NCBI GenBank assembly: GCA_003056265.1
Contig: NBVN01000007.1
Location: 16,381 to 48,380 of the forward strand
Source of the DNA: Zestosphaera tikiterensis
Lineage (GTDB): Archaea; Thermoproteota; Thermoprotei_A; Sulfolobales; NBVN01
DNA length: 32,000 nucleotides
Direction: 5' to 3'
The notes beneath the pieces were generated by a model. It was not told the origin of the DNA. It did not search any database and saw nothing but the letters and a program-made list of their open reading frames with translations. A program made the translations under genes and the position numbers. Shown here piece by piece: positions 253 through 23,655 of this stretch; positions within the stretch are counted from its first letter, which is position 1, and the number at the start of each line of letters is the position of its first letter.

Positions 253-1428
253 TTATAGTATGGTTTGAACTTCTCTATGCTTAAACCTATTCGATTCAAA
301 TCTAATCGTTTTTCCTATGGCGCAGATTAGGGATCGTATCTTTTCTCTTAATTGGTAAACTTCATCTACTTTATCTTTAAGGACGGATATGTTTTTGTTG
401 TCTATGGCTTCCTTCTTTAGGTTTTCTACTCTTTCGATGACTTCAAGATAGTTTGGATCTACTCTACGCGTGTTTATGAATTCCTTCTTAAACGCTTCTT
501 TAACGCTCATACCTAAACGCTTCTCCAACTCCTCGACGCTCATTTCCTTAGGTAGATCATGCAAGGCTTTCAAAGCACGGGCAATAGCCTCCAGCATGAT
601 CACATAAGTTCGTTTTAGAGCATCTATTGCTTTAAGAAGCTCTAAAGCGGCAGATAAGTCAAGCATTTCAGAAACGAACTCATCCGCTTTATTTATCCAT
701 TCATCAACAAGAGTTCCTGGAACTTCCGTTACTTCTCCATGTTCTACCTTCTTTCTAAACTTTATAATGTCTTCGAGCCATTTAACATACTCTAACTTAA
801 GCAGACCTGCGTCGACGAGCTTTTCCTTCACCTTTACGGGCAATTTACTAGGCGGGGACGGTTCTTGATCTAAGAGCATTAACACGGCTTGAGCTGAGTT
901 GGTCATAGCTTTATAGCAGTTTTCCGCTACTATGAGAACCTTAGATGCTTTAGCTTCAAGCAACTTTCTAGGAACTTCCTCCAGATATTTTTCCGCAGCC
1001 TCCTTAGTCCTAGGTATTTTTCCACTCTTTAAGAGTATCTTCCAAGGCGTAAAGAAGCCTACATCGTATAGGGGTATCCCATCCTTGATAAAAGTGTATA
1101 CTATTGGATGTCCATTACTCGCATATTCCGTGAATTCTGTTAAACTCCATAAATGTATGGAAAGCCTTCTCGAAACGTTACGGGCTATATTATTTAAAAT
1201 ATCTTCTATTTTATCCATATTTATTTTAATTTCCTCTTCTTCTATATGAATAGTATCATCTATTATGACGAGGATATCTATGTCGCTGGATTCATTTAGT
1301 TCGTTTCGAGCAGCAGAACCAACTAACACAATAGACTTAATGAGTTTATTGATGTTTGCGTCACTAAGAACCTTTTTAACAAACAAGCTAACTATTTCCC
1401 CAACTTTAGACGCTAATTCCATAGTCAA
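253..1428 (-). CDS. Pol-beta-superfamily nucleotidyltransferase domain protein with a helical HEPN-like middle region and a coiled-coil C-terminus
   Basis: 391-aa ORF. The N-terminal motif VLVGSAARNELNESSDIDILVIIDD matches the minimal NTase signature GS-x(9-10)-DxD. The downstream helical segment (AENCYKAMTNSAQAVLMLL) is HEPN-like, but no Rx4-6H motif was verified. Confidence 0.8.
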   Translation of the reverse strand: MTMELASKVGEIVSLFVKKVLSDANINKLIKSIVLVGSAARNELNESSDIDILVIIDDTIHIEEEEIKINMDKIEDILNNIARNVSRRLSIHLWSLTEFTEYASNGHPIVYTFIKDGIPLYDVGFFTPWKILLKSGKIPRTKEAAEKYLEEVPRKLLEAKASKVLIVAENCYKAMTNSAQAVLMLLDQEPSPPSKLPVKVKEKLVDAGLLKLEYVKWLEDIIKFRKKVEHGEVTEVPGTLVDEWINKADEFVSEMLDLSAALELLKAIDALKRTYVIMLEAIARALKALHDLPKEMSVEELEKRLGMSVKEAFKKEFINTRRVDPNYLEVIERVENLKKEAIDNKNISVLKDKVDEVYQLREKIRSLICAIGKTIRFESNRFKHREVQTIL

Positions 1429-1622
1429 GGCTCTCTCACCCTCTTATGAAGCCATTTATCTCCGGTTCTACCTATAGGCCATGGAAAATCTTCGCCGTAT
1501 ACATGCACCATGAATTCGTTCCCCTTCAGACTGACATGTTCCTCTTGATCACTTCGAGATATATGTAAGGGTGTATACCAGTCAGACTGTTTCTTAAAGT
1601 TGAATTTCTCCTTCCACGACAT
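1425..1622 (-). CDS. hypothetical 65-aa protein, translationally coupled to the nucleotidyltransferase gene
   Basis: Its stop overlaps the downstream ATG by 4 nt (1425..1428). A TATA-like TTTATATA on the minus strand sits about 35 nt upstream of its ATG. No motif recognised. Confidence 0.5.
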   Translation of the reverse strand: MSWKEKFNFKKQSDWYTPLHISRSDQEEHVSLKGNEFMVHVYGEDFPWPIGRTGDKWLHKRVREP

Positions 1623-1676
1623 ATTTCCACCATTTATATATTTACTAAGAGGGTATATAAACTTTTAGGAGATAAG

Positions 1677-1719
1677 TTCTAATAGTAGATATGTTCACTG
1701 AACATATCTACTATTAGAA
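1677..1719. repeat. 43-bp palindrome with perfect 21-bp arms around one central base
   Basis: TTCTAATAGTAGATATGTTCA-C-TGAACATATCTACTATTAGAA, verified base by base. It lies just upstream of the TATA box of the 1622 operon. Confidence 0.9.
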
Positions 1720-2255
1720 TATTCCACTAAACAAACAGAAAACTCCATCCATGATATTTTGAAGAGATTATGTTCTGATAACTTAAATGCTAACGCCCTA
1801 TGCTTCTAGTGATAAGTTTAAATTAGGGGTAGTAAAGAAATAATTGTAGGGTCAAATGAATAAAGACAAATTAGAGACTCTGCTAACCGCAATGAAAGAA
1901 CTGAAAGAACATTTGGAGAGATCTCGATAACAGAATCTACCCTGTTTGTGGCAAACTGATATATGCTACAGTTTGATACGATGGTCAGAACCAATAATAA
2001 TAATTTTTATGATATTTCATTGAAAGACCTAGAGTAAAACATTGCAGAGAGAAGCGGTTAAAAGAGACTGAAAGAGAGAAAGAAATAAGTAAATGGGAAA
2101 AGCTGTTATATACTAGATGTTGTTAAAGGTTAGAAAGTCTTTAACTTAGAAGACTTCCTAGCCCATAAGAGAGGTAGGGTCCTAAAGGATCCCCTCCTTA
2201 TCTGATTACGTGACCCCACCATCACTACTAAGCCCAAAACGGTCTCTGGTGCTAC

Positions 2256-2930
2256 TTAACTAGTCTTTAGATTGTTCTTACCTAGCTTTAGCCCGTATTT
2301 CATCGCTGCCTCGTTTACTTTCTTTACGAACCTGGGGTAGCTTATCCTGTAGTTTTCGGCTCTCGCCATTCTCCATAAGTCTTTCTTGCTTAGGTATGGG
2401 TATTTACGGATTAGCTTAACGACGAATTCCTCGGGGATCGACGGTGGTCTGCCGACGTGCTTCCCTTCCTTCCTAGCTCTTTCCATCCCCGCTTTGATTT
2501 TCTCCTTCAATGCCTCAACGTATTTTTGGTAGCCGTACGCTAAAGCCCTCACAACTATGTCGAACATTAACTTCCTCAACGCTTCGTCAGGTATTGCCGT
2601 CAGCGACTGAAGCCACTCCTCTTGATAAGTTATTACGTTCACGCCCCTCTCCCTTAAGCCGTCGAGTGTTTTAACTAGGTAGTCATACCTTCTTGAGATC
2701 CTGTCAAGCGAAAAAACGAGTATAGCGGCACCCTCCTTAGAAGCTAACTCAACCGCCTTAACCCACCCAACCCTCTCCTCAGGCTTCGTTTCATACCCGC
2801 TAACACCCGGATCCTCAAACACTCCAACAACCTCAACACCCCTCGACTCGGCGAACCTCCTTAAAGCAAGAACTTGATTCTCAACCTTCTGATCCTCCGT
2901 CGACACCCTAGCGTAGATCACGGCCTTCAA
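2256..2930 (-). CDS. small serine recombinase (resolvase/invertase architecture: N-terminal catalytic domain plus C-terminal HTH)
   Basis: 224 aa. The N-terminus KAVIYARVSTEDQ carries the catalytic-serine motif, and LDRISRR is the conserved resolvase arginine cluster. The basic C-terminus is HTH-like (LSKKDLWRMARAENYRISYPRFVKKV). The start is TTG at 2930 or GTG at 2921, with a TTTAAATA TATA box about 40 nt upstream on the minus strand. Confidence 0.9.
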   Translation of the reverse strand: MKAVIYARVSTEDQKVENQVLALRRFAESRGVEVVGVFEDPGVSGYETKPEERVGWVKAVELASKEGAAILVFSLDRISRRYDYLVKTLDGLRERGVNVITYQEEWLQSLTAIPDEALRKLMFDIVVRALAYGYQKYVEALKEKIKAGMERARKEGKHVGRPPSIPEEFVVKLIRKYPYLSKKDLWRMARAENYRISYPRFVKKVNEAAMKYGLKLGKNNLKTS

Positions 2931-3050
2931 TTCTTCATCCCCGTAATCAAAATACTTAATACCCTTATTTAAACGTTTTGTTTATGAAAACACCCCTTAA
3001 GAAACAGTTGCGAAACCACCCCCTTCCGTTAACAAACCCTATAAAGAGGT

Positions 3051-3106
3051 AATGAGACAAACCTTCACCGTATATGCTAGTTATTATATGTTAGGAAAAT
3101 CTAAAA
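3051..3106 (+). repeat. partial copy (S) of the repeat field found at 23331..23411
   Basis: An ungapped hand alignment of 3051..3100 with 23331..23380 gives 34/50 identities. Shared runs include AATGA-ACAAA, ATGCTAGTT and TTATAT, followed by GAAAATCTA. Confidence 0.5.
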
Positions 3107-3132
3107 TTGCGTTTTTCTAGTGTTTAGGGTCT

Positions 3133-3294
3133 TTAGTTTTTAAAGCTGGTTCGTCGGTAGATCCCTCTTTCAGTTCTTTCTATATACTCTAAATCTTTCT
3201 TTAAGTTCTTAAGTTCTTCCTTCAATTCGACAAAGTGAAGAGTTCTAAGGGTTGTGGTGGAATGCCAACACTTATAAACTTTGTCATTAAGCAT
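3133..3294 (-). CDS. possible 53-aa coiled-coil ORF (below the track size cutoff)
   Basis: ATG at 3294..3292 and stop at 3135..3133. It reads MLNDKVYKCWHSTTTLRTLHFVELKEELKNLKKDLEYIERTERGIYRRTSFKN. There is no homology evidence, so it may be spurious. Confidence 0.2.
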   Translation of the reverse strand: MLNDKVYKCWHSTTTLRTLHFVELKEELKNLKKDLEYIERTERGIYRRTSFKN

Positions 3295-3511
3295 CAAATA
3301 CGTTGAAGCCCCTGATAGTACGTTTTTTAAACTTAATAGAGAGCAACCTCCCGGACATCCTTAGGGAAGATGGTAAGCTAAAATCGCCTAAGTCCATAGT
3401 AGAGAAACTTCATAAGCTATTGAAACAGGATTGATACGTACGTTACTAGGGATTCTTAGAAAGATGACTTACGTTGAAGAAAGACCTTTAATTTCTTTCT
3501 AGTGAACGAAG

Positions 3512-9207: not shown

Positions 9208-9530
9208 CTTTCAGTCTTTTTCTATTGTTTCGATACCCGAGGTCTCTCAAAGCCCTCATAGTGTCGTAGATCAGCTGCGTCTTTCAGTCTTTTTCGATTG
9301 CTTCGGAGTATGAAGTGCTTGACTACGCCACGAAATACGTGGTGGGGGAGGACACCGCTTTCAGTCTTTTTCTATTACTTCCCTACTTCTTTCGTAGTCT
9401 TGAGGTTCTGCACTACGTGTTGCCTGAGCCATCTTTCAGTCTTTTTCTATTACTTCCCATATCCGCTTCTAATTTCGGCTTCGCCTTCCAGCCTAGACTC
9501 TAATACCTTTCAGTCTTTTTCTATTACTTC
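9208..9530 (-). CRISPR. cas-less CRISPR mini-array with 5 repeats of 24 nt and 4 spacers of 49, 53, 51 and 50 nt
   Basis: Repeats lie at 9208-9231, 9281-9304, 9358-9381, 9433-9456 and 9507-9530. The three rightmost are identical (plus strand CTTTCAGTCTTTTTCTATTACTTC), and the two leftmost each carry 2 mismatches. The reverse complement GAAGTAATAGAAAAAGACTGAAAG ends in GAAAG like crenarchaeal type I-A/III repeats, so transcription is on the minus strand with the leader to the right. A possible further decayed repeat lies at 9137-9160 (13/24 matches, correct spacing). Confidence 0.8.
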
Positions 9531-9658
9531 AAGTTATTGTTTGACGTAGGAGTATTTAAATATTTCCGTGGTGGTTTTCGGAAAGACCATCAAACACCAT
9601 CAGATGCCGACCATCACGTTGTCGGGTCGTAAACGTATGATTTATACTCCAGTTGTTA

Positions 9659-9682
9659 GAAGCAATCATAAAAGACTGAAAG
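9659..9682 (+). repeat. orphan CRISPR repeat in the opposite orientation to the array
   Basis: GAAGCAATCATAAAAGACTGAAAG on the plus strand matches the reverse complement of repeat 2 at 22/24 and the consensus at 20/24. It is separated from repeat 5 by 128 nt. Confidence 0.65.
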
Positions 9683-9966: not shown

Positions 9967-9981
9967 CTAAACTAATGTAAT

Positions 9982-10083
9982 TAGATTTTCTGGGTTTTAG
10001 GCATGAGAGTAAGCATACACTCTAGTAGAGTGTAAATTTACACTTAGGAAGGATTAGCTTTTCGAGAGCAAGCCTGAAAAATC
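9982..10083 (-). repeat. copy L of a ~100-nt element: TAGATTTTC, then palindrome GTGTAAATTTACAC, then ATTAGCTTTTC, then TGAAAAATC
   Basis: The reverse complement aligns with 23540..23649 and shares exact runs of 22 nt (ATTTACACTCTACTAGAGTGTA), 13 nt (GAAAAGCTAATCC) and 9 nt (GAAAATCTA). The strand label is relative to copy R. Confidence 0.75.
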
Positions 10084-12622: not shown

Positions 12623-13126
12623 CCTATCACCTTTACCTGATTACTCAGGTTACTAGACGATACTACCACCTGCATGTTAATTACAGCACCGTAATCGACC
12701 CTCCCGCTTACCTCAAACTTAGTCTCACTCATGGTACCACGTGTTCTTGAAGGTTTCAAACATATATATGCGTGGTCATGCGTGAGGACGTCCCAAAATA
12801 CACACCCATGGTTTGGCTAAAACAGTAAGAGTACCGCAAAACTAAAGACCTAACCGAAAAACAGTCCCGCAACCACCTTAAGAAAGTGCCGAAACGATAC
12901 CGCACACCGTGAAATCAACGAATATAAAGTACGTATGTATGTGGTTCGTATACGACATAGAACTCGCTAAACCGCAACGCCATACCCTCCCTTCAGGTAG
13001 ATGTAAATTTACACTTATGTATGAAGCCGATCGCAAATCTCTTAAGCATGGAATTAAAACTGGCAGCAACATTTTGCGATATAGCTCAAATGTTGCAGAT
13101 GCACCTACACCTAAGTGAAACCATGC

Positions 13127-13145
13127 CTTTGATAAGCTTAACAAA
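13127..13145. promoter_or_regulatory. copy a of the TTGATAAGCTTA(T/A)CAA motif (CTTTGATAAGCTTAACAAA)
   Basis: The 19-mer is identical to the one at 19851..19869. It lies 77 nt upstream of the 13222 start codon. Confidence 0.6.
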
Positions 13146-13221
13146 ATAAAGTTAAGTATGAGCTATGTAGCGACATGTTTATAAGCTTCTATAACACTAT
13201 AGTATATAGGGGATTAGGCTT

Positions 13222-13557
13222 ATGGTGATAAGTGGTATAGGGTTATCTACACCAGAAGAGCCTAAAGACGTTAAGAACTTCATAAAGTCCGTAAGAGCAG
13301 GACTTGGCGAAAGTCCCAATATGGACTACGACTCTCTCGCTGTTTGGAGTTTCAATAGACTTCCCAAATATCTCTGGAAGCTCTGGGGGGATGAGTTGAT
13401 AAAGAGGGGTATTACATGGCAGAAGTTTCTAAGGATTTTGAAGCTCCATACTATAGATATTGTAGAGTGGGCGTTAAGGGATTCACTAAGCTGGGAGGAG
13501 CTTGTTAAAAGGATCGAGAAGAGCATTGATAGTTATTCGAGGAGTGGGAATAGATAA
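13222..13557 (+). CDS. hypothetical 111-aa protein, first gene of the methyltransferase operon
   Basis: Its stop and the MTase start share TAATG (1-nt overlap at 13557). No HTH or other motif recognised. Confidence 0.6.
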   Translation: MVISGIGLSTPEEPKDVKNFIKSVRAGLGESPNMDYDSLAVWSFNRLPKYLWKLWGDELIKRGITWQKFLRILKLHTIDIVEWALRDSLSWEELVKRIEKSIDSYSRSGNR

Positions 13558-14774
13558 TGGGTTGTGCGTACCATGTAAAAGATATGCATTTAGTCAGACT
13601 GACTTACCCTGGAAAGATTAGCAAAGAGGAACTCTATAAAATAGTGCAACCTGCAGAATTAAAGGTCGTGAAGGAGTTTAGAGTAGGCAAGCCACTTATA
13701 GATGATGGTTGGAGAAACATGCTGATACTAGGAGATAATCTTCCCGTTCTTAAAGCTCTTCTACAAGATGATAGAATTCGTGGAAAGGTTAGACTCATAT
13801 ACATAGATCCACCCTTCGGTACAGGATCTATTTACCGCGGTAAGAGGCATATAAGTGCAAGCTCAGAGGATGAAATAGCTTATCAAGATATGTCGCTAAG
13901 CCCAGAATACCTAGAGTTCCTGCGAAGGAGATTAATATTTCTATACAATTTGTTAGCCGAAGATGGATCTATATATGTTCACATGGATGTAGATGCTATA
14001 CACTATGTGAAGGTGTTAATGGATGAAATATTCGGCATAGAGAATTTTGCAAATGATATAGCCAGAGTTAAATGTAACCCAAAAAACTTTGAGAGAAGAG
14101 CTTACGGGAATATTAGAGATTCGATACTCTTTTACGCTAAGAACTATGGAAAAAATGTATGGAATGAGCCTAGAGAGCCTTATACAGAAGAGGAAATTGA
14201 GAGACTCTTTCCTAAAGTGGATAAAGATGGCAGAAGATATACCACAGTACCTCTACACGCTCCTGGCGAAACAAAGAATGGCCCTACAGGTCAATCTTGG
14301 AGAGGGATCAAACCACCGCCTGGGAGGCATTGGAGATATCCTCCAGAAGTCCTAGATGAATTAGATAGAAGGGGTCTTATTGAGTGGAGTAGCACAGGCA
14401 ACCCTAGACTTAAGATATATGCTGATGAATACGTAAAGAGAGGTAAGAGAATACAAGATGTGTGGCTGAACTATAAGGATCCAGTCTATCCTGAATATCC
14501 TACAGAGAAAAACTTAGAAATGGTTATGAAGATTGTTGAAGTGTCTAGTAATGTTGGAGATATTGTATTGGACGCATTCTGCGGCTCAGGCACCTTGGCT
14601 GTCGCAGCTGAGAAGCTAGGCAGGAAGTGGATATGTATAGACATTTCACCGCTTGCTATAGAGATAGGTTTGAAAAGAATATTGGAGCTCAAGACTTATA
14701 GACCCTTTGTACTAGTTAATGCTACTGGTAGAGAGTTACCTGAAAGGCTGAGAAAGTTCCTCGAAGGTATCTAG
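13557..14774 (+). CDS. beta-class DNA methyltransferase (N6-adenine or N4-cytosine)
   Basis: 405 aa. Motif IV IYIDPPFG precedes motif I VLDAFCGSGT, which lies near the C-terminus. This circular permutation is typical of the N6_N4 MTase family (M.PvuII/M.RsrI type). Confidence 0.9.
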   Translation: MGCAYHVKDMHLVRLTYPGKISKEELYKIVQPAELKVVKEFRVGKPLIDDGWRNMLILGDNLPVLKALLQDDRIRGKVRLIYIDPPFGTGSIYRGKRHISASSEDEIAYQDMSLSPEYLEFLRRRLIFLYNLLAEDGSIYVHMDVDAIHYVKVLMDEIFGIENFANDIARVKCNPKNFERRAYGNIRDSILFYAKNYGKNVWNEPREPYTEEEIERLFPKVDKDGRRYTTVPLHAPGETKNGPTGQSWRGIKPPPGRHWRYPPEVLDELDRRGLIEWSSTGNPRLKIYADEYVKRGKRIQDVWLNYKDPVYPEYPTEKNLEMVMKIVEVSSNVGDIVLDAFCGSGTLAVAAEKLGRKWICIDISPLAIEIGLKRILELKTYRPFVLVNATGRELPERLRKFLEGI

Positions 14775-15626
14775 GAGATACTCCTCTAGGAAAAGGGCCG
14801 ACATAACAACTTTATCACCTACAGCTACCTTTATCACTCTGTCTGTATACTTCTTATAATACCATACAATGCCATCAATTAGAGCTATGCCCTTTATTTT
14901 TACTCCTTTCATGACTCTCAGCATCTCCTCCATTTTTTCAACGAAGTTAAGTGTATTGCCTAGGTCTCTGTTTTGGGATCCACCTGGCGTGCTCAGAAAC
15001 CTTGCCTCACCCACTATATAGATATCTTTAACTTTAGCTATTACATCGCGATTAAAGAACCCCTGTTCTGGTTCTTTTAGTCCAAGTCTATTCTTTATGA
15101 AATCTGCTATTGATTCATCTGAACCTGCGTAAATACATATTTCATTGCTCCTACATTCTAGTAGCTGATTTGGATTGTTTACAACGTTAAAAGGCTCTTT
15201 TCTAAACTTTCTATTTATCCACTCCTTGAACTTCGCTCCAAGCATTCGGTTTATATCTTTAGGTCTTTCTACTCCTCTTATTATGTTGTCTAGACCCAGA
15301 GAAGCTGTGGCCTCGGCTAATATCCTAATAATTTGAGGGTTACAACTTATGACCTTTTTACGATTAGAATCTCCTAAGTGACGCAATAGAGCTGCATAAG
15401 GATGTTCTATAGGGAATGGATAATCCTTTAAACTAATTAGAAGAGTAACTAAATCTTCGTATTTTTCGCTTTGATAGAGACGTACTATCTGGTTCTTAAC
15501 GTTATTTGGAAGAGGCCTTTCAGGAGGAAGTTCTGCAGGATAAATCTCAAGCAATTTATCAAGATAATTGCTTTTCTGAGCTAATTCCCATGTTTTCAAC
15601 GTCCATGGATTAAGCCTATCTAACAA
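14736..15626 (-). CDS. hypothetical 296-aa protein; candidate type II restriction endonuclease partner of the methyltransferase
   Basis: It is convergent with the MTase and the 3' ends overlap by 39 nt. A possible PD-(D/E)xK-like segment is RDVIAKVKDIYIVGEARF (D...E-x-R). The functional call is mainly contextual. That it is a real coding gene is considerably more certain than the listed confidence, which refers to the endonuclease assignment. Confidence 0.55.
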   Translation of the reverse strand: MLDRLNPWTLKTWELAQKSNYLDKLLEIYPAELPPERPLPNNVKNQIVRLYQSEKYEDLVTLLISLKDYPFPIEHPYAALLRHLGDSNRKKVISCNPQIIRILAEATASLGLDNIIRGVERPKDINRMLGAKFKEWINRKFRKEPFNVVNNPNQLLECRSNEICIYAGSDESIADFIKNRLGLKEPEQGFFNRDVIAKVKDIYIVGEARFLSTPGGSQNRDLGNTLNFVEKMEEMLRVMKGVKIKGIALIDGIVWYYKKYTDRVIKVAVGDKVVMSALFLEEYLLDTFEELSQPFR

Positions 15627-15707: not shown

Positions 15708-15813
15708 TAGATTTTCAAAGCTTCAAGCGTAGGGCTTACCCTTATATACTGCTTAAGTGTAAATTTGCACCTACAGAGAAATTAGATTTTCTGGATTTGC
15801 CCCCTGAAAATCT
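15708..15813 (-). repeat. copy M of the ~100-nt GTGTAAATTT(A/G)CAC element, in the same orientation as copy L
   Basis: The module order is TAGATTTTC (15708), GTGTAAATTTGCAC (15757..15770), ATTAGATTTTC (15781), TGAAAATCT (15805), the same as in L. AGATTTTC-N14-GAAAATCT can form an 8-bp hairpin. Confidence 0.7.
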
Positions 15814-16430: not shown

Positions 16431-16543
16431 GGACAGTGGACAGTCGGTGGACACTGTCCACCCGTCCAAAAACAAAACTTAAGGTGGGGAACACCTTAAA
16501 AACACGCAACTTAAATACTGTCCACCACCGTCCTAGTGGACAG
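16431..16543. promoter_or_regulatory. cluster of six GGACAG/CTGTCC hexamers upstream of the TM-HTH gene
   Basis: GGACAG lies at 16431, 16438 and 16538, GGACAC at 16449, and CTGTCC at 16454 and 16518. GTGGACAGTCGG occurs twice, and GTGGACA-C-TGTCCAC is palindromic. Confidence 0.5.
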
Positions 16544-16637
16544 TCGGGCACTTAAAATAAAGTTAGAAAGGGATGTGGTTTTTATAACTGTCTCATATCT
16601 ATCTAATGGGTTTGTAAACCTGATTTACTACTTAACT
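16518..16637 (+). repeat. direct repeat A (partner B at 22281..22457)
   Basis: The first 53 nt match B at about 47/53. Later shared blocks are TCTCA(T/C)ATCTATCTA and an exact 18-mer GTTTGTAAACCTGATTTA. B carries an extra ~57 nt. Confidence 0.8.
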
Positions 16638-17312: not shown

Positions 17313-17934
17313 ATCATAACTATAGAGTAAACACCTTTAAACTTAGTTATCCCTACTTAACACCTAAGTACTGTGATGCCTTCTTTTCAGCTTCTCCTAC
17401 GATTTCGCGGTATATCCTTGGACCTTTCAACATCTCTTCATTCTGACGCTTCCCTCGACAAACTCCTCAACGCACTTAAATGCATTCTTAAATTCGGCAT
17501 CGCTGAGCAGATGTTTCAGTATCTCAACGATATAGTCAATCCTTAGAGTAAGCTAGAAGAAAAGTGGAGAAGCGTACTAACCTCAGGGTTCGAGAGGCAC
17601 GGCTTGCAGTTCTGTTCCTCAGTTACCGTTATTCATCGGGGGGTTATTGCTTCGTCTTTCCGCATTATAGAATTGAGATGCGTAGTGTTGATTATGCTTA
17701 AGACAAGAAGTGTGATAGCTATCGATGGTATCATTACTTTATCACTGCATTATAACTACCTAGCACTATCACACTTTTGATTATGGGATACTCTTTAAAG
17801 CTATTCCTTTTGAAACTAATTATTCTCAGAACCAATCCAATCTTTCTTTTCAACATTTCCAGAAACAAGGAGCTATTTTGGGTTATATCTTATTAAAAGA
17901 TTCTACATCTATAGATTAAATGGAGGTGTAGGGA

Positions 17935-18222
17935 GTGAAATGCCTAGAGAGCGACTATAGTTATAGTGGAGCTAAAGTTCACGTGGTGGTGTATACTTCA
18001 TCTGAAGATATATGCAGGGAGGTTAAAGATGCAGAATCGAGAGGAGTTGCTGGTGTTATGGAGTTTCTCGAAAGGCATGGTGGATGCTATGTAAAATCTG
18101 AGAAACCTCTAGTTGCTGAGTCAGGAGATGGAAGTGTATCTGTTGAGATAAAGCCCATGAACTTTATTGCTAGAACCTTCTGGGCTTCAGCAGTAGAGAA
18201 GGCTAGGGAAGTCTGTAGATAG
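17935..18222 (+). CDS. hypothetical 95-aa protein
   Basis: GTG start preceded by GGAGGTG. No motif recognised. Confidence 0.45.
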   Translation: MKCLESDYSYSGAKVHVVVYTSSEDICREVKDAESRGVAGVMEFLERHGGCYVKSEKPLVAESGDGSVSVEIKPMNFIARTFWASAVEKAREVCR

Positions 18223-18327
18223 TGCACTATACTGTCTAAAAAAGATCGGCTCATTATAACGTTGCTGATGCGTGTTTGAATAAAAGTTATGAACATGGAT
18301 GCTAGGTATTGAGCTAGGTGTTAAGTA

Positions 18328-19350
18328 ATGAGAGTGGGTGTTATCGGTTGTGGCGGTGCTGGCGAAACCCACGTTAGAGGGTATTTAGAGAATGGTTTTA
18401 ACGTAGGAAGTATATACCTATGTGATGTGGATAAAGGTAGAGTTACTGACGTAGCTAGTTCTTTCAACATACCGAGTGAGAACGTCTTCTACGGGGATAA
18501 ATGCCACCTAGATTTTATCGGTAAAGTCGACGTTGTTAGCATAGCTACACCACCTTTCGAAAGGGTTAACATAGTTGAGGACTTATCTCAATACGTTAAA
18601 GGCGTTTTAATAGAGAAACCCCTCGCCCATAACGTTGAGGACGCTGTTAGAATCGTAAATATCTTAAGAAGCTACGGGGTTGTTGACGCTATGGTTTATA
18701 ACTTGAGGTTCTCGCCGGTGTTTGACTACCTTAAAGGCGTTATTAAGGATGCTTCCGTTGTGTTCGTATATCATGAGTTTGGATTCGATTATTTAAACGC
18801 AACTGGTTGGAGGGGTAAGCCTGAGTTTGGCGGTGATCACATTGTCGAGCTCGATATACACGTCATTAACTACGTTAGGTATCTTTTAGGTGAGCCTAAA
18901 GCCATACATTCACATGCTTACGACTGCGTTAATGAAGGGATGTGTAGAGACGTATATACGATATTCTACTTCAGCAGCAATTCCGCCCACACCTACGTAA
19001 GGCATGGAACTGGCAGATCCGGCGATAGGTATTTCTACATGAACGTAGAGGTTCACAACCCTATGGACGACAGCTACAGAGCCTTCACCGACTGGCCTAA
19101 CTTCAAATTACTGCATGGAAGTAGGGAGGTGCCTATCGAAGAACCACATATATGGAGAAACATCTACATTACAAACATTATTAAAAACTTCATAAGCAGC
19201 GTTAAAGGCGTTGAGAAACCCAAGGCAAACGCTATAGACGGCTATAGAGACCTCACTATAGCTTACAGCATTAGAAAATCCATCAAGGAAGGCTATAGAT
19301 TAAATAAACACGTAATTGGAAAGCCCGTAGAAATAGAGTATATACTATAG
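18328..19350 (+). CDS. Gfo/Idh/MocA-family NAD(P)-dependent oxidoreductase
   Basis: 340 aa. The N-terminal Rossmann motif is MRVGVIGCGGAGETH, and the family EKP motif is present in VLIEKPLA. Confidence 0.85.
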   Translation: MRVGVIGCGGAGETHVRGYLENGFNVGSIYLCDVDKGRVTDVASSFNIPSENVFYGDKCHLDFIGKVDVVSIATPPFERVNIVEDLSQYVKGVLIEKPLAHNVEDAVRIVNILRSYGVVDAMVYNLRFSPVFDYLKGVIKDASVVFVYHEFGFDYLNATGWRGKPEFGGDHIVELDIHVINYVRYLLGEPKAIHSHAYDCVNEGMCRDVYTIFYFSSNSAHTYVRHGTGRSGDRYFYMNVEVHNPMDDSYRAFTDWPNFKLLHGSREVPIEEPHIWRNIYITNIIKNFISSVKGVEKPKANAIDGYRDLTIAYSIRKSIKEGYRLNKHVIGKPVEIEYIL

Positions 19351-19374
19351 ACTAGATTTACGTCCATATATAGG

Positions 19375-19402
19375 CTTCAGTCTTTCCGTCTCTATTGTTA
19401 CA
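19375..19402. repeat. solitary sequence resembling the CRISPR repeat
   Basis: CTTCAGTCTTT-CCGTCT-CTATTGTTAC compares with repeat 1, CTTTCAGTCTTT-TT-CTATTGTTTC. Two flanks of about 10-11 nt match around a 4-nt insertion. It lies 25 nt after the oxidoreductase stop. Confidence 0.3.
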
Positions 19403-19538
19403 CAGCTTCCTATGTAGATAGAAGCTAAATACTAGAAAGAAACCTATCGAGGGACTTACGGGAGACGTATAAATTAAGAAGAATATGCTTGTTCATGCTT
19501 ACTGCGAGAAATCACGAAATCTTTTAAGTGCTCTGTGT

Positions 19539-19868
19539 TTAATACTCGCATATAACAACGCATGGTGTGAGGACCTCAACGTTTTTAACTAACCTACCCT
19601 CGAAGTCTCTAACTCTTATGGCTGCCGCGTTTTTATCCTTCCTAACGAACACTTCAGCTTTCAAACCCTTCCCCCTCTCAACGCTTTTTAAGATTTCGAA
19701 AACACCGAATTGAGTGATTAGTTGGATGGACTTCATAGGCTGCCTACCGTAGAAAACCTCCTCAGCCTCAACCCTTAACCGAGTTGAAGTTAAGCTGGTG
19801 TAGCTGAAGCCAACGCTACGCGTTGAACCCACCCTTAACCCCCTCAACCACTTTGATAAGCTTAACAA
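19539..19868 (-). CDS. hypothetical protein with uncertain start (an internal ATG at 19736 would give 65 aa)
   Basis: The annotated TTG start and the first six codons (MLSLSK) are simply the translation of the repeated motif at 19851..19869, so the N-terminus is doubtful. No motif recognised. Confidence 0.35.
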   Translation of the reverse strand: MLSLSKWLRGLRVGSTRSVGFSYTSLTSTRLRVEAEEVFYGRQPMKSIQLITQFGVFEILKSVERGKGLKAEVFVRKDKNAAAIRVRDFEGRLVKNVEVLTPCVVICEY

Positions 19869-19897
19869 AGCTTATAAACTTTGATAAACTTAACAAA
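19851..19897. promoter_or_regulatory. two motif copies (b: CTTTGATAAGCTTAACAAA; c: CTTTGATAAACTTAACAAA) bracketing a TATA-like TTATAAA
   Basis: Copies lie at 19851..19869 and 19879..19897, with the TATA-like box at 19873..19879. The ATG of the Zn-ribbon gene is at 19909, which suggests a leaderless transcript with an operator-flanked TATA box. Confidence 0.6.
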
Positions 19898-19908
19898 GCG
19901 GTGGACTT

Positions 19909-20259
19909 ATGGGTGGTGAGGAACGTAAGCCTTCATGCCCTAGGTGTGGCTTACCTATCGAGCGTTTAGTAAGTAAGAAGGTTTTCGGGAGGGTTTATAT
20001 ATACGCATACCATAGGGGTGGTAGGCAATGTTACTTAGGTCCTGAGGGTGAGTACGTCCTCGTGTCTAAACTTCAGCCATTCACACTCTACCCAATACAC
20101 GACGCGGATAGGTTAGTTGATTACGCGTTCGGCTTCCTAGAATCTATAACACACGAATCTCAAAAACTCACTAAAGAACAAATAAAACAAGTAATAGAAT
20201 ACCTACGTGAAACACTAGAGAAGTTAGAGGAAGAGCTGAAAAGAAGAGAAGGAGGCTAA
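19909..20259 (+). CDS. zinc-ribbon protein with a C-terminal coiled coil
   Basis: 116 aa. CPRCG is followed later by QCYLGP. The C-terminus is E/K-rich and helical. It lies directly upstream of orc1/cdc6 in the same orientation. Confidence 0.7.
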   Translation: MGGEERKPSCPRCGLPIERLVSKKVFGRVYIYAYHRGGRQCYLGPEGEYVLVSKLQPFTLYPIHDADRLVDYAFGFLESITHESQKLTKEQIKQVIEYLRETLEKLEEELKRREGG

Positions 20260-20339
20260 CACCTTCCTCTACTTAGGTGGGGTTAGCGGAATTTTGAGCG
20301 TGTTTGCAGACCGTTAAGTTTATTTTAGCGGAAAAAGAC

Positions 20340-20376
20340 GGGTGTTAGGGGAAATAGGGGGAAGTAGGGGTTTGGG
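20340..20376 (+). other. canonical G-quadruplex-forming motif upstream of orc1/cdc6
   Basis: G-runs lie at GGG 20340-42, GGGG 20348-51, GGGGG 20357-61, GGGG 20367-70 and GGG 20374-76, with loops of 5, 5 and 3 nt. It ends 10 nt before the ATG at 20386. A TTTATTTTA TATA-like box lies at about 20319. Confidence 0.6.
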
Positions 20377-20385
20377 TGTTCCTCC

Positions 20386-21426
20386 ATGAAAATTCTAAAC
20401 ATTGAAGCGTTATTTCATGACTACATACCGTCGTCTCTACCCTGTAGGGAAGTTGAGTACAGTCGAATTGCTGAAGAATTCATGTTTGTTGATAAGGGGT
20501 TTATGCCTTCGAACATCGTTGTTTTAGGTCCGACGGGAAGCGGTAAGACAGTTACTGTTAGGAAGGTGTTAAGTGATATGAAGGTGAATTACGTCTATAC
20601 GGTCGCTGATAAGTTGGCGTACGCGACGCTCGTGTCTATTGCGGAGAACCTAATTAAAAAGAGGTTGTGGGGTTTCTCGTTTGCGGATGTGTGGCGAAGG
20701 CTTGATGAGGCGTTGGATAAGAACGTAACTATAGTGATAGATGAGGCGGAGAGGTTTATAATGAAGGACGAGAGGAGTGATGAGCTCCTCTACTATCTAA
20801 GCAGGAGACCTAAGACGAGCGTTATCCTCATAAGTAAGGTGATGAACGTCTTAGATTACGTGCGGGATGCGGGGGTTCGGTCCTCCCTACGTTCTAAAGT
20901 AGTTGTTTTCAAACCTTATAACGCTGATGAGTTGCTGAGGATCTTAACTGAGAGGGCGAGGGAGGCGTTCGAAGGGGATTTTGCTGAGGAGGGTGTGTTA
21001 AGCTACATTTCAGCTATAGCGGCTCAACGCGGAGGGGACGCGAGGTACGCGATAGACATCTTAAGGGAGGCTGTGAAGTGGGCGTTAAAGACTGGAAGCG
21101 AAAAGATAACGCTGGAGCACGCTGAAAAAGCGAAGAAAAGCGTTGAGGAGAGGTACGTGGAGGAAAGCATGTCAGCACTTTCCACAGCACAGAAGCTAAT
21201 GCTTCTCGCTGCGGTGAAGTCAAGAACTGTTGGGGAGGCTTACAGAAACTTCAACGAGTTAGCGATGAAATACCTCGGAACAACCTACAGCGAAAGAAGG
21301 TTAAGAGACATCCTCGGGGAACTGGAGGAGATGGGCTTCATCTCAATAAAGAGAGAAAAGAAAAGCTGGATCATAGAGAAAAGCACGTGGCTGCCGAAAA
21401 ACATAGAATCATACCTAACACCCTAA
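20386..21426 (+). CDS. orc1/cdc6: Orc1/Cdc6 replication initiator, a short and divergent 346-aa form
   Basis: Walker A is GPTGSGKT and Walker B is IVIDEAE. GGDARYAIDILREA is the hallmark Orc1/Cdc6 sensor-2 region. The C-terminal winged helix is RLRDILGELEEMGFISIKRE. Confidence 0.9.
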   Translation: MKILNIEALFHDYIPSSLPCREVEYSRIAEEFMFVDKGFMPSNIVVLGPTGSGKTVTVRKVLSDMKVNYVYTVADKLAYATLVSIAENLIKKRLWGFSFADVWRRLDEALDKNVTIVIDEAERFIMKDERSDELLYYLSRRPKTSVILISKVMNVLDYVRDAGVRSSLRSKVVVFKPYNADELLRILTERAREAFEGDFAEEGVLSYISAIAAQRGGDARYAIDILREAVKWALKTGSEKITLEHAEKAKKSVEERYVEESMSALSTAQKLMLLAAVKSRTVGEAYRNFNELAMKYLGTTYSERRLRDILGELEEMGFISIKREKKSWIIEKSTWLPKNIESYLTP

Positions 21427-21456
21427 CACAGACACCCCCGGGGGTATTTCCGGTAA
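21423..21456 (+). repeat. ORB-like origin element, left arm of a 34-nt inverted repeat
   Basis: CTAACACAGACACCCCCGGGGGTATTTCCGGTAA overlaps the orc1 stop codon. It matches the reverse complement of 21878..21911 at 33/34. The TTCCGG dyad plus G/C string is reminiscent of crenarchaeal origin recognition boxes. Confidence 0.75.
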
Positions 21457-21515
21457 AAATCGAAACTGTAAACTCTGCAATTTTAGTTTTATCATTCTCT
21501 CATTATAGAACCTTC

Positions 21516-21655
21516 TATTAATAAAAATTAAAAATAAAAATTTAATAAAAATAAAAATAAAAAATAAAAATAAAATTTAAAATTAATTAAATAAATTAAA
21601 AATTATTTCTTATTCTATATTAATTATATTATTTTTATTTAATGAATTCTTTATT
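21516..21655. other. duplex unwinding element of a replication origin
   Basis: 21516..21608 is an uninterrupted 93-nt run of A/T with phased A-tracts (ATAAAAATAAAAATAAAAAATAAAAATAAAA). Only a handful of G/C occur up to 21655. Confidence 0.8.
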
Positions 21656-21828
21656 TAGAGATCATGATACAAACCGCGCCTTCAATGCTTTTGCTTATTT
21701 GCACATCGGTCTCTTTTGAAGATTCTCATGTGATAGTATGGAAGGATTTTCGGTTTTTTGATGGTGGTTTTGAATTTTGTTTTTATTTTTGTGTTTTTTG
21801 TTTTGTTTTCGTTCTCTTTATTGTTTGT

Positions 21829-21846
21829 TTTGATAAGCTTATCAAA
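21829..21846. promoter_or_regulatory. copy d of the motif, a perfect 18-bp palindrome TTTGATAAGCTTATCAAA
   Basis: The sequence is self-complementary. It lies inside the origin, 32 nt left of the right ORB-like arm. Confidence 0.65.
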
Positions 21847-21877
21847 GAACTTTTCTGATCTGCATATCTTTTAGTGG

Positions 21878-21911
21878 TTACCGGAAATACCCCCGGGGGT
21901 GTCTGCGTTAG
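21878..21911 (-). repeat. ORB-like origin element, right arm of the 34-nt inverted repeat
   Basis: TTACCGGAAATACCCCCGGGGGTGTCTGCGTTAG. A further ORB-like sequence, GGTTTCCACTTGAAGTGAACTCCCCC, lies at about 21937..21962. Confidence 0.75.
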
Positions 21912-22152
21912 TAATTTTGGGTTTCTCTGGTTTTGGTTTCCACTTGAAGTGAACTCCCCCTTCCTTTCTGTGTTAGTTTTCTTAACTTGAAGCATTTACC
22001 TACAGAAGTACTTACTTGAAGTGTTTGAAGTTCTCGTCATGTCGTATTCACGCGCGGGGTAACGCAGGACTGTTCAGCTTCCGTTTCGTTTTATCGAGTT
22101 CTCTACCTACAGATCATGACACAAACTCCACTTGCATTTTCTGCGTGGTTTG

Positions 22153-22264
22153 GATAAGCTTATCAGAAACACATCATTTAAAGTTAGTAGTTGCTGCGTG
22201 TGTATCGTAACTCTCACTCTAGAAGCGAGGCTGAATTAATGTTTCTTATTGATAAGCTTATCAG
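22153..22264. promoter_or_regulatory. copies e (TGGATAAGCTTATCAG, core 22153..22164) and f (TTGATAAGCTTATCAG, 22249..22264) of the palindromic motif
   Basis: The exact 12-mer GATAAGCTTATC occurs at both positions, as it does in copy d. Confidence 0.6.
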
Positions 22265-22280
22265 AGTTCCTGCGCTTTAG

Positions 22281-22457
22281 CTGTCCGCAACCGTCCTAGT
22301 GGGCAGTTGGGCACTTAAATAAAGCTAGAAAGAAGCGAGTTCTACAACCATCTCACATCTATCTAGTTGATTTGTTAAATAAATGAGGAACGGCATTCAT
22401 AACTACTACTAAGCCCTATTGTTTAAAGAGTTTGTAAACCTGATTTAATGCTTAACT
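22281..22457 (+). repeat. direct repeat B (partner A at 16518..16637)
   Basis: See repeat A. The stem CTGTCCGC...GTGGGCAG differs from A (CTGTCCAC...GTGGACAG) by two transitions that would keep U-G and G-U pairs in a plus-strand RNA. Confidence 0.8.
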
Positions 22458-22476
22458 TTACTTTTTTTTATTTCGT

Positions 22477-23040
22477 CTAGAGGTACTTTCTCAGTTCTTC
22501 TTCGTACTTCTTTTTTAGTTCTTGGTATTTCTCTTCACTTATTCTTCCGAACTCATATTCCTTCTCAAGTTCTTTTATCTTCTCCTCGATTTTACTTCTT
22601 TCTTTATACCTCCTCAGCAATTCCTCAATCTTAGTTCTTATGTTCATCGGATCTGAAACACCTATCATAATGACTGACCCAGCATACTGGCCTGGAGTAC
22701 TTATAATCACATTCCCATAGTTTAGGATTCTCCCCATTAAGCCTTGAGATATAGCTGTGCCAGTAATCCACTCGTTCTTAATCTCAAATACGTGCCTAGC
22801 AATTATACCGTACTTAACGTAAATACGCTTGTTTGACATAAAATACTCAGAGGCATAGACTCTAAGCACAGCGATTATGAAGAAGATTATACCAAGCCCA
22901 AAGAGGAAAATTGTTAACACTCCAAGAAGGAGGAGTACCCAGTTCGCCTTCCAACTCATCCTACCGTACCAGTAAGGAATTTCTCCCTCAACTAAAACAA
23001 AACCGCTAGGAATCTTTAATTTATCCAATATTAACACCAC
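22477..23040 (-). CDS. membrane protein with a bacterial-type PH domain (bPH_2/DUF304-like) and a C-terminal SHOCT-like helix
   Basis: 187 aa with a GTG start. Two TM helices (VLLLLGVLTIFLFGLGIIFFIIAVL) precede YFMSNKRIYVKYGIIARHVFEI...ILNYGNVIISTPG, which is a YdbS/YdbT-type PH pattern. The C-terminus ELEKEYEFGRISEEKYQELKKKY matches the SHOCT pattern. Confidence 0.75.
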   Translation of the reverse strand: MVLILDKLKIPSGFVLVEGEIPYWYGRMSWKANWVLLLLGVLTIFLFGLGIIFFIIAVLRVYASEYFMSNKRIYVKYGIIARHVFEIKNEWITGTAISQGLMGRILNYGNVIISTPGQYAGSVIMIGVSDPMNIRTKIEELLRRYKERSKIEEKIKELEKEYEFGRISEEKYQELKKKYEEELRKYL

Positions 23041-23310
23041 CTAATATAACTACATCTACCATATAAGAATAGTAAAATAACAAATATAAATCTTACCTTA
23101 CTTATCGAGGCTTATCAAGGAAAGCTAGCTTCCCTTCCGTTTCGTTGTAGAGCTAGATATAATATGATATGGGGAAGTAGTTTCCTCTTACTGCATCCCT
23201 AGGGTTGGAGCACTCCACCGTAGGGCGGGTTATGAATGTTATGAAGCTTCGTAAATTTCATAAGTCCCAAGGGGAACAGGTGTTAACACCGTTGTGGAGT
23301 ATATAATTAA

Positions 23311-23398
23311 GTGTAAATTTACACCCAAATAATGAAACAAATTTTTAGTACTCATGCTAGTTGTTATATATGTGAAAAACTCTTGAAATGAGGTTTTC
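23311..23398 (+). repeat. repeat field part 1: palindrome GTGTAAATTTACAC (23311..23324) plus the segment homologous to 3051..3106
   Basis: It contains an exact copy of the 14-bp palindrome also found at 10030..10043. The alignment with S is described under the feature at 3051. Confidence 0.6.
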
Positions 23399-23401
23399 CC
23401 T

Positions 23402-23649
23402 TGAAAATCTAACTCACGGGTAAAGCAGTAGAAAATCTACCCCTCGATAAGAGTGAGTGTTAGAAAATCTAATAGAGGGTTAGACCCTGAGAGTAGATTC
23501 TCTGGGGGTAAGCCTAGAAAATCTAGTTCCTACGTGAGTTAGATTTCATGAGGTTTTAGAGGTCTTGAAAAGCTAATCCCCCCTCAAGTGTAGATTTACA
23601 CTCTACTAGAGTGTAAGCCTACGCCCACGCTTGAAGCCCTGAAAATCTA
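23402..23649 (+). repeat. repeat field part 2: array of (T)AGAAAATCTA iterons plus copy R (23540..23649) of the ~100-nt element
   Basis: TGAAAATCTA lies at 23402 and 23640, and TAGAAAATCTA at 23429, 23461 and 23515. Inverted forms TAGATTCTC and TAGATTTCA lie at 23494 and 23540, GAAAAGCTA at 23567, and GTGTAGATTTACAC at 23588..23601. GAAAATCTAACTCACG (23403) is complementary to CGTGAGTTAGATTTC (23533). Confidence 0.75.
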
Positions 23650-23655
23650 GTTGGA

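Follow-up and report, generated by a model that had tools for sequence, protein, structure and literature searches.

An Orc1/Cdc6-dependent replication origin predicted downstream of a compact orc1 gene in an archaeal contig

Does the intergenic DNA that follows a short orc1/cdc6 gene in contig NBVN01000007.1 of Zestosphaera tikiterensis serve as an origin of replication, and if so, is it an origin of a known kind? The question was raised by an earlier note on a 32-kb stretch of this contig (here, the window), which described a pair of inverted repeats resembling origin recognition boxes (ORBs) around an A/T-rich spacer as a textbook-like but compact origin. An intact initiator, a minimum of duplex stability, a layout that recurs in related loci and a central motif resembling the ucm of Sulfolobus bear out the origin reading as far as sequence can. 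We regard region 21423-21911, with accessory sites up to about 22270, as a likely Orc1/Cdc6-dependent origin, which together with the adjacent orc1 gene would make up a replicator-initiator pair. Its design is very probably the known ORB-DUE(-ucm)-ORB type, where DUE is the duplex unwinding element, placed in an unstudied clade of Orc1 proteins with a short wing, and not a new kind of origin.

Arms, A/T run and initiator gene

The inverted pair is as the earlier note had it. Two arms of 34 nt, complementary at 33 of 34 positions, enclose a gap of 421 nt, and the left arm overlaps the stop codon of orc1 (TAA, 21424-21426). The TTCCGG/CCGGAA dyad (TTCCGG at 21448, CCGGAA at 21881) lies beside CCCCCGGGGG, which is found only at 21435 and 21890. 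The core of the arms is an exact 26-mer, ACCGGAAATACCCCCGGGGGTGTCTG, whose two occurrences in the window are both in the arms (0 in 100 shuffles); the inverted repeat as a whole scores 60 bits against a shuffle maximum of 28. Judged against published ORB fragments, and not a curated ORB model, the main arms have TTCC and a C5G5 string without the GAA half of the classic dyad. The pattern GGAA-N(1-5)-GGGG or -CCCC occurs seven times in the window, and five of these occurrences flank orc1. Outside the right arm the reported third ORB-like sequence (GGTTTCCACTTGAAGTGAACTCCCCC, 21936-21961) and the repeated ACTTGAAG units (21942, 21985 and 22014) are likewise present. The half-site of the third element, GTGAA-CT-CCCCC, has the same outward polarity as CGGAA-ATA-CCCCC of the right arm.

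Between the arms, the uninterrupted 93-nt A/T run is more than three times as long as the next-longest in the window (28 nt). Its repeats have periods of 6 and 13 by Tandem Repeats Finder. The A-tracts had been described as phased; they recur every 6-7 nt and so are not in helical phase. By nearest-neighbour energies, the least stable 100-nt segment of the whole 32 kb lies at 21543 (dG -89.8 against a mean of -128.3, z 4.9) and the least stable 200-nt segment at 21469 (z 4.6).

The G/T-skewed tract further to the right is real in its composition (57 T, 16 G, 5 A and 4 C), but the skew is not conserved in relatives. We considered whether a left half rich in A and a right half rich in T are conserved among origins, and rejected the idea: among 16 related spacers one is so arranged, four are the opposite, and the rest are neither. 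We assign to the tract at most the role of low-complexity, easily melted DNA. Orc1 of A. pernix binds T-rich single-stranded DNA (PMC8287685), and by analogy this precedent makes a role for the tract conceivable. Two open reading frames (ORFs) here, 21664-21858 on the plus strand and 21783-21995 on the minus strand (a JGI gene call), encode low-complexity peptides and were taken as spurious. A scan for bacterial-type promoters and terminators gave nothing above shuffles.

The initiator gene was described as short and divergent. Its product is indeed only 346 aa long and belongs to a distinct short-wing clade, but the recognition helix (ERRLRD), the initiator-specific motif (ISM) and the ATPase motifs are all kept. 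The protein has the Pfam domains AAA_16/AAA_22, Cdc6_lid and Cdc6_C (the C-terminal winged helix), a Walker A (GPTGSGKT), a Walker B (DEAE), a sensor-2 (GGDARY) and an ISM (WGFS). It exceeds the cutoff of NCBIfam TIGR02928, the orc1/cdc6 subfamily (212 bits, cutoff 181). It falls well short of the equivalog models for the named ORC1 types (178 bits against 501), which marks the clade as divergent. The best match in the PDB is S. solfataricus Orc1-1 (2qby_A, E 3.8e-39, 138 bits, residues 4-322), followed by A. pernix ORC1, Orc1-3 (98 bits) and, as the next of the archaeal chains listed, P. aerophilum Cdc6 (1fnn, 57 bits). Since domains and motifs are intact and Orc1-1 is the nearest of the solved structures, the sequence is that of a complete but compact initiator-type protein.

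The closest relatives of this Orc1 are 43-56% identical to it, 327-439 aa long (mostly 352-377 aa) and almost all metagenomic; the named ones come from Nezhaarchaeales and Marsarchaeota. Invariant in the clade are Walker A and B (GPxGSGKT, DE), GGDAR of sensor-2 and WG of the ISM. The recognition-helix sequence SERRLRD is conserved in most members, and the wing is six residues shorter than in the sister subclade.

Upstream of the gene lie G-rich direct repeats, absent from the earlier note, and two TTAGCGGAA motifs (Table 1). Arrays of GGGGAAAT, GGTGAAAT or TAGGGG are likewise found upstream of orc1 homologs in the related loci L015/L022, L021, L002/L029, L034 and L023. The promoter repeats are probably sites of Orc1 autoregulation. 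In Thermococcales, ORB clusters are known on both sides of cdc6 (PMC1904270).

Table 1 Features of the predicted origin and its surroundings (positions in the window)
Feature	Position	Strand	Remarks
Palindromic copies TTTGATAA(G/A)CTTAACAAAG	19850..19899	+	two copies, just upstream of the 116-aa Zn-ribbon ORF
116-aa ORF	19909..20259	+	N-terminal CPRC...CYLGP Zn-ribbon-like region; directly upstream of orc1
Two TTAGCGGAA motifs	20283-20293 and 20325-20335	+	upstream of orc1
G-rich direct repeats GTGTTAGGGGAAATAGGGGGAAGTAGGGG	20343..20379	+	run of GGGGAAAT-like units in the orc1 promoter
orc1/cdc6 gene	20386..21426	+	346 aa; AAA+, lid, winged helix with short wing
Left ORB arm (candidate) CTAACACAGACACCCCCGGGGGTATTTCCGGTAA	21423..21456	.	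C/G-string DUE-distal, TTCCGGT core DUE-proximal
Predicted DUE core	21516..21608	.	degenerate AATAAA repeats; 63 A + 30 T on the + strand
ucm-like motif AGATCATGATACAAAC	21659..21674	+	includes ATGATACAAAC at 21664-21674
T/G-rich tract	21749..21830	+	degenerate TTTTGTT-type repeats; imperfect mirror of the A-rich run; locus-specific
Palindrome 1, TTTGATAAGCTTATCAAA	21829..21846	.	inside the spacer, beside the right arm
Right ORB arm (candidate) TTACCGGAAATACCCCCGGGGGTGTCTGCGTTAG	21878..21911	.	inverted-repeat partner of the left arm
Third ORB-like element GGTTTCCACTTGAAGTGAACTCCCCCTTCC	21936..21964	+	TTCC-N4-GAA spacing and C-string
Two further ACTTGAAG units	21983..22026	+	degenerate half ORB-like repeats, same orientation
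Second copy of the 37-nt repeat	22090..22138	+	ends in ATGACACAAAC (9/11 to ucm, 22116-22126), then degenerate ORB-like CTCCACTTGCATT
Palindromes 2 and 3	22149..22266	.	GGATAAGCTTATCA at 22152, TGATAAGCTTATCA at 22250

Related loci and the central motif

The comparison set comprised 105 fetched loci (contigs, cited by L numbers), and the orc1 flanks of the contigs that encode homologs were searched for inverted repeats. Of 20 metagenomic homolog loci (35-52% identity), 15 have an inverted repeat that lies no more than 1.5 kb from orc1 and outscores each of 15 Markov shuffles; as near-duplicates are among them, there are fewer independent loci than these counts. The 16 inverted pairs that were inspected have spacers of 111-421 nt, AT-enriched compared with their own locus, and lie upstream or downstream of orc1. 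With its 421 nt the spacer of the window is the longest among the 16 related origins compared, and the word compact does not fit it.

Most arms follow one grammar. Read towards the spacer, they consist of a C/T-string (CCCTCTCCCCC) or a G-string and then (A/T)(G/T)TTCC, as in CCCCC-AG-TTCCGGTCAG (L023 and L026), GGGG-TGG-TTCCGGTCCC (L033), CCC-AG-TGCCGGTAACT (L018), GGGGGGAGGG-ATTTCCATCGCTTCC (L019), CCCCCC-TTTCCACTTGTAA (L037) and, in the window, CCCCCGGGGG-TAT-TTCCGGTAA. Cores that match the window are TTCCGGT in L023, L026 and L033 and TGCCGGT in L018; L021 breaks off 60 nt past its orc1 stop, in the left-arm-like CCCCCTCCCCTTTCC. The TTTCCACTTG of the third element also occurs in the ORBs of L037, with related variants in L035 and L039 (TTCTACTTG or TTTCCACTTG, and GTCCACTTG) and in L040.

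Because some relatives carry a C-string and others a G-string on the TTCC strand, the C5G5 palindrome of the window reads as a fusion of two string polarities and not as a foreign element. The earlier note had seen in the CCCCCGGGGG core a sign that the recognition code may differ. Both G-strings of ORBs and G-rich inverted repeats had already been described: oriC1 of Haloarcula hispanica has G-strings at the ORB ends and a G-rich inverted repeat beside the ORBs, and these are functional (PMC3936714). CCCCCGGGGG is therefore no evidence for a different code.

A different arrangement was seen in L002/L029, where iteron-like copies of AAATCCCTATGAG, at least 11 in number and in either orientation, are spread over 2 kb downstream of orc1 (about 1257-3440), with no single inverted pair around an AT-rich spacer downstream of the gene. 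The array may represent an alternative layout of an origin, or else a cluster that titrates the initiator.

In Sulfolobus oriC1, a 2025 study found that ORB3-DUE-ORB2 is essential and that an 11-bp motif midway between the ORBs, ucm, is essential as well; the nucleoid protein UBP binds ucm and makes contact with MCM's N-terminal domains (PMC12141716). The oligonucleotides of that study give its sequence as ATTATACAAAC. In the window, ATGATACAAAC is identical to it at 10 of 11 positions, and its centre lies 2 nt off the midpoint of the 421-nt spacer. The window has no other match to ucm with at most one mismatch. As 1.1 such matches are expected anywhere in 32 kb, it is the location that is improbable: the estimated chance of a ucm-like match within 5 nt either side of the centre is roughly 4e-4.

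This element had been noticed before as part of a direct repeat. The repeat GATCATGA(T/C)ACAAAC does occur at 21660 and 22112, but its 15 nt are the end of a longer 37-nt repeat (21638-21674 and 22090-22126, 78% identical). In the form GATCATGATACAAAC it includes ATGATACAAAC. Given the 10/11 match, the central position and the matches in the spacers of relatives, the most fitting interpretation of the direct repeat is a ucm-like element that recurs in weaker form at 22116-22126.

The exact 11-mer is found in only two of the 105 loci, L019 (5597-5607) and L020 (2719-2729), which have their orc1 gene in common. The L019 copy is located within the 111-nt AT-rich spacer of inverted G-string ORBs, upstream of an orc1 homolog whose product is 42% identical to that of the window. 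Among the other spacers, those of L039 and L040 match ucm at 10/11; of the 12 remaining, 11 reach at most 8/11, and that of L030 reaches 9/11 in very AT-rich sequence.

Proposed initiation and rival explanations

From the anatomy, the initiator, the stability minimum, the conserved layout and arm grammar and the position of the ucm-like motif we infer the following course of protein binding, melting and firing. One ATP-bound Orc1 monomer would bind each 34-nt arm, the two in opposite orientations, with the winged helix on the DUE-proximal TTCCGGT and the initiator-specific motif of the AAA+ domain on the distal C/G-string. Binding would deform and underwind the DNA, so that the 93-nt A/T run melts, and two MCM hexamers would be recruited head to head. 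The central ATGATACAAAC would act like ucm, as a site for a small UBP-like nucleoid protein halfway between the two helicases. Additional or cooperative initiator binding may be provided by the third ORB-like site and the outer ACTTGAAG units, and through the GGGGAAAT-type promoter repeats Orc1 would regulate its own gene.

With oriC1 of Sulfolobus/Saccharolobus the window shares inverted ORBs around an AT-rich DUE beside the initiator gene; there each ORB takes one Orc1 monomer with a defined polarity, which here is predicted. The 11-bp motif midway between the ORBs (ATTATACAAAC there, ATGATACAAAC here) and an extra ORB outside the inverted pair are also common to both. The Sulfolobus core is about 130 bp long, whereas that of the window is 489 bp. 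A 36-bp classic ORB is replaced here by a TTCCGGT half-site directly next to the C5G5 string, the origin lies downstream instead of upstream of orc1, and the Orc1 of the window is about 50 aa shorter, with a truncated wing.

In H. hispanica oriC1 the left ORB has a C-string and the right ORB a G-string, at the ORB ends, and as in the window both C-runs and G-runs are associated with each ORB. There is a functional link between that origin and its neighbouring cdc6 gene (PMC3936714), and the predicted origin of the window also adjoins its orc1. H. hispanica's inverted repeat rich in G, however, lies within the ORB pair, separate from the G-strings, whereas in the window C5 and G5 adjoin, and the 10-nt palindrome that they make up is distal to the TTCC core; the window comes from an organism of 40% GC that, unlike H. 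hispanica, is no halophile. At Pyrococcus abyssi oriC a pair of 34-bp ORBs forms an inverted repeat, and mini-ORBs of 13 bp are also present (PMC1904270). The window resembles it in its 34-nt inverted arms and in having ORB-like sites on both sides of the initiator gene, and the third element, as TTCCACTTGAAGT, shares 10 of 13 positions and the TTCC-N4-GAA spacing with the mini-ORB TTCCAGTGGAACT. It differs in that the main arms are without the GAA half, in that there is no dp1-linked ORB cluster, and in having far fewer mini-ORB copies.

If active, the locus would give an origin-initiator pair from a clade whose short Orc1 proteins have been met almost only in metagenomes. About a dozen natural ORB variants, each paired with its initiator, offer material for studying recognition of the TTCC core and the G/C-string by the winged helix and the ISM. 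The central ucm-like motif suggests that the design of Orc1 plus a nucleoid protein may reach a clade with named relatives outside Sulfolobales and Desulfurococcales. The textbook picture of an origin would be extended by this, not changed.

Several points weigh against an active origin of this design. The full TTCC-N4-GAA dyad of classic ORBs is absent from the arms and present only in the third element. The origin lies downstream of orc1 between convergent genes, while upstream is the more familiar position, although downstream placement is also seen in several of the relatives. The ucm-like match is short and AT-rich, and the roughly three independent hits with at most one mismatch in 16 spacers, where about 0.6 are expected, amount to a modest excess. 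A homolog of UBP (PDB 9EFD-9EFF) was not found among the three small ORFs of the window that were searched against the PDB. Finally, only five of eight predicted cdc6-adjacent origins of H. hispanica were active as autonomously replicating sequences (PMC4010727).

The last point bears directly on a reading in which Orc1 binds the arms but replication does not start there, the locus being either the silenced or decaying origin of an integrated element or the operator set of a regulatory Orc1. ORB clusters can act as negative, titrating elements (PMC3936714), Orc1-2 paralogs are regulators and not initiators (PMC9738581), and two contigs from the same sample, L102 and L105, diverge from the window before orc1, which fits an accessory and possibly integrated element. 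Decay, however, would erode an ORB-DUE-ucm-DUE-ORB layout that is intact here, with 33/34 arms and an unbroken 93-nt A/T run; the ATPase, ISM and winged-helix motifs are all in place, and the protein is nearest to the initiator-type Orc1-1. We hold a dormant or purely regulatory site to be quite unlikely, and still a serious caveat, because only some of the predicted cdc6-adjacent origins fire in model species.

Two explanations that involve mobile or recombining DNA appear far less probable, and each to about the same slight degree. In size, in its near-perfect terminal inverted repeats of 34 nt and in an interior that is AT-rich and non-coding, the 489-bp unit resembles a miniature inverted-repeat transposable element (MITE) or insertion sequence remnant that landed after orc1. 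Yet it is single-copy in the window and has no other copy among the 105 loci, where the arm sequence is otherwise present only in L001, which is identical to the window. The one match of an arm 19-mer in IMG/VR, in an ORF of an unrelated 62% GC contig without other similarity, is attributable to chance, and the flanks (AACACC and TAATTT) show no target-site duplication. Diverged relatives, moreover, keep the arm grammar and the position beside orc1 with different arm sequences, which is not expected of a transposon. The arms could instead be recombination sites of a switch that flips the 421-nt segment and so alters the expression of flanking genes. A short asymmetric segment between inverted repeats suits such a switch, as do a serine recombinase of the resolvase/invertase family encoded at 2256-2930 and the inverted spacer between the ORB arms of L023 and L026. 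The recombinase gene, however, lies at a distance of 18.5 kb, the segment has one and the same orientation in both available contigs (window and L001, 100% identical), and both flanking genes point inward, which leaves no gene for an internal promoter to drive. The arm grammar is that of ORBs, and occasional flips by homologous recombination between inverted ORBs are expected and would be harmless to a symmetric origin. An RNA gene was also considered and rejected, as the window has no tRNAs and no Rfam matches at gathering thresholds.

Genomic context and other repeats

Besides orc1, the window encodes the serine recombinase, an archaea-specific SMC-related protein, an M48 peptidase, an oxidoreductase whose homologs are all metagenomic and a restriction-modification (R-M) pair, and it contains a CRISPR array; there are no ribosomal proteins in the 32 kb. 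The type II R-M pair consists of an N4/N6 DNA methylase (13557-14774, plus strand) and a Tsp45I-family endonuclease (14736-15626, minus strand), convergent with an overlap of 39 nt. A blastn search of 19800-23200 against a plasmid collection gave no match, and a tblastn search of Orc1 against plasmid and phage collections gave only distant ones (Methanothermobacter plasmids, 36%; haloarchaeal plasmids and viruses, 24-32%). When genome contigs were searched with a profile of the Orc1 family alignment, the relatives among the matches listed were at most 30% identical. The homolog of L017 (50% identity) lies 5 kb from the genes of ribosomal proteins S12 and S7, so that relatives can be chromosomal.

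The two contigs from the same sample point to variation between strains. L102 (Ga0079640_1002776) is 95% identical to the window up to 19352 and also has window-like segments in other orders and orientations. L105 (Ga0079640_1056212) shares the two small ORFs upstream of orc1, to about 20260, and its version of the 116-aa product is 93% identical. Past their breakpoints both continue with different sequence without orc1 (compared with window 17860-20260). By these alignments the orc1-origin region is strain-variable and mosaic, and since similarity to the same-sample strains stops before orc1, it is probably an exchangeable module. A comparable case is seen in L026 (4076-5544) and L032 (14-1482), which share a flank that is 99.5% identical and includes a 215-aa Zn-ribbon gene but carry different orc1-origin modules, with orc1 at about 69% nucleotide identity and ORBs of the TTCCGGT and TTTCCGCC types, respectively; this looks like the replacement of a module at a single site. 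In L023 (2585-2919) and L026 (3637-3913) the spacers lie in opposite orientations (87.9% identity on the reverse strand) beside orc1 genes that are 92.7% identical, which indicates that recombination between ORB arms flips the DUE. Both patterns match the published view of archaeal replicator-initiator pairs as mosaic, with extrachromosomal elements as their source (PMC4010727). Breakpoints between strains and swaps of orc1-origin modules illustrate how archaeal replicons acquire origins.

The perfect 18-nt palindrome TTTGATAAGCTTATCAAA reported in the spacer is there, but it is not unique: further copies of its 14-nt core, TGATAAGCTTATCA, are present at 22152 and 22250, and 13130, 19854 and 19882 are the sites of near-copies. 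The motif TTTGATAAGCTTAWCAAAG that describes them has six copies (13128-13146, 19852-19871, 19880-19898, 21829-21846, 22149-22168 and 22247-22266); at up to three mismatches there are nine hits in the window against 2.7 expected. Two copies stand at -57 and -29 of the 116-aa ORF and are both kept in L105, one is upstream of ORF 13222-13557, and three are in the origin region. The palindromes at 19850..19899 are probably sites for a dimeric DNA-binding protein, and we infer a link to the origin from the shared motif; TTTGATAAGCTTAWCAAAG looks like the operator of a dimeric regulator common to the origin and neighbouring promoters.

The 116-aa ORF itself has no Pfam or PDB assignment, and a homolog search found one close relative only. 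Among ten window ORFs of unknown function it was the sole one with a match in PHROGs, to an uncharacterised family without informative viral annotation. Its CPRCG...CYLGP region also occurs in the protein encoded beside the orc1-origin unit in L026 (4413-5060) and L032 (498-1145; pairwise E 4e-7). A DUF6788 protein encoded upstream of orc1 in L018 has a loosely similar stretch, C..C...YIY..GGRQ..YLG.

A wider proposal, possible but rather doubtful, would join these strands: the orc1-origin unit may be a self-contained, horizontally exchanged cassette of an uncultured hot-spring (Thermoproteota-like) lineage, in which a Sulfolobus-type ucm is combined with an undescribed TTCCGGT-C5G5 ORB grammar read by a short-wing Orc1 and with further control through a dedicated dimeric factor on the TTTGATAAGCTTAWCAAAG palindromes of the origin region and of the Zn-ribbon gene promoter. 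On this view, recruitment of another Orc1 paralog by the type-B ORB beyond the right arm, in the manner of Sulfolobus oriC2, would be conceivable.

Other repeats were noted in the window. The CRISPR array (9208-9532, minus strand) has five repeats of GAAGTAATAGAAAAAGACTGAAAG (24 nt, with the crenarchaeal-type ...GAAAG end), the last two degenerate, and spacers of 49-53 nt; no nearby cas genes were recognised by Pfam. Isolated copies resembling the repeat lie on the opposite strand at 9659-9682 (plus strand) and 2051-2075. Two pairs of direct-repeat blocks (16518-16556 and 22281-22319, 39 nt, 90%; 16604-16637 and 22424-22457, 34 nt, 88%) are each located just 3' of a minus-strand gene, and the first block has an 8-bp hairpin, CTGTCCAC...GTGGACAG. 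The blocks may represent a 3' element in common, or else a small RNA, and they have no Rfam match. The motif GTGTAAATTTACACTTA, with the palindromic core TGTAAATTTACA, is found in five intergenic regions (9979-10075, 13002-13024, 15746-15770, 23308-23331 and 23560-23652) and may be a shared promoter or operator, or mark the ends of a larger element. The set includes a 67-nt inverted pair (9979-10045 and 23586-23652, 84% complementary) whose members, at a distance of 13.5 kb from each other, enclose the R-M genes together with orc1 and the origin.

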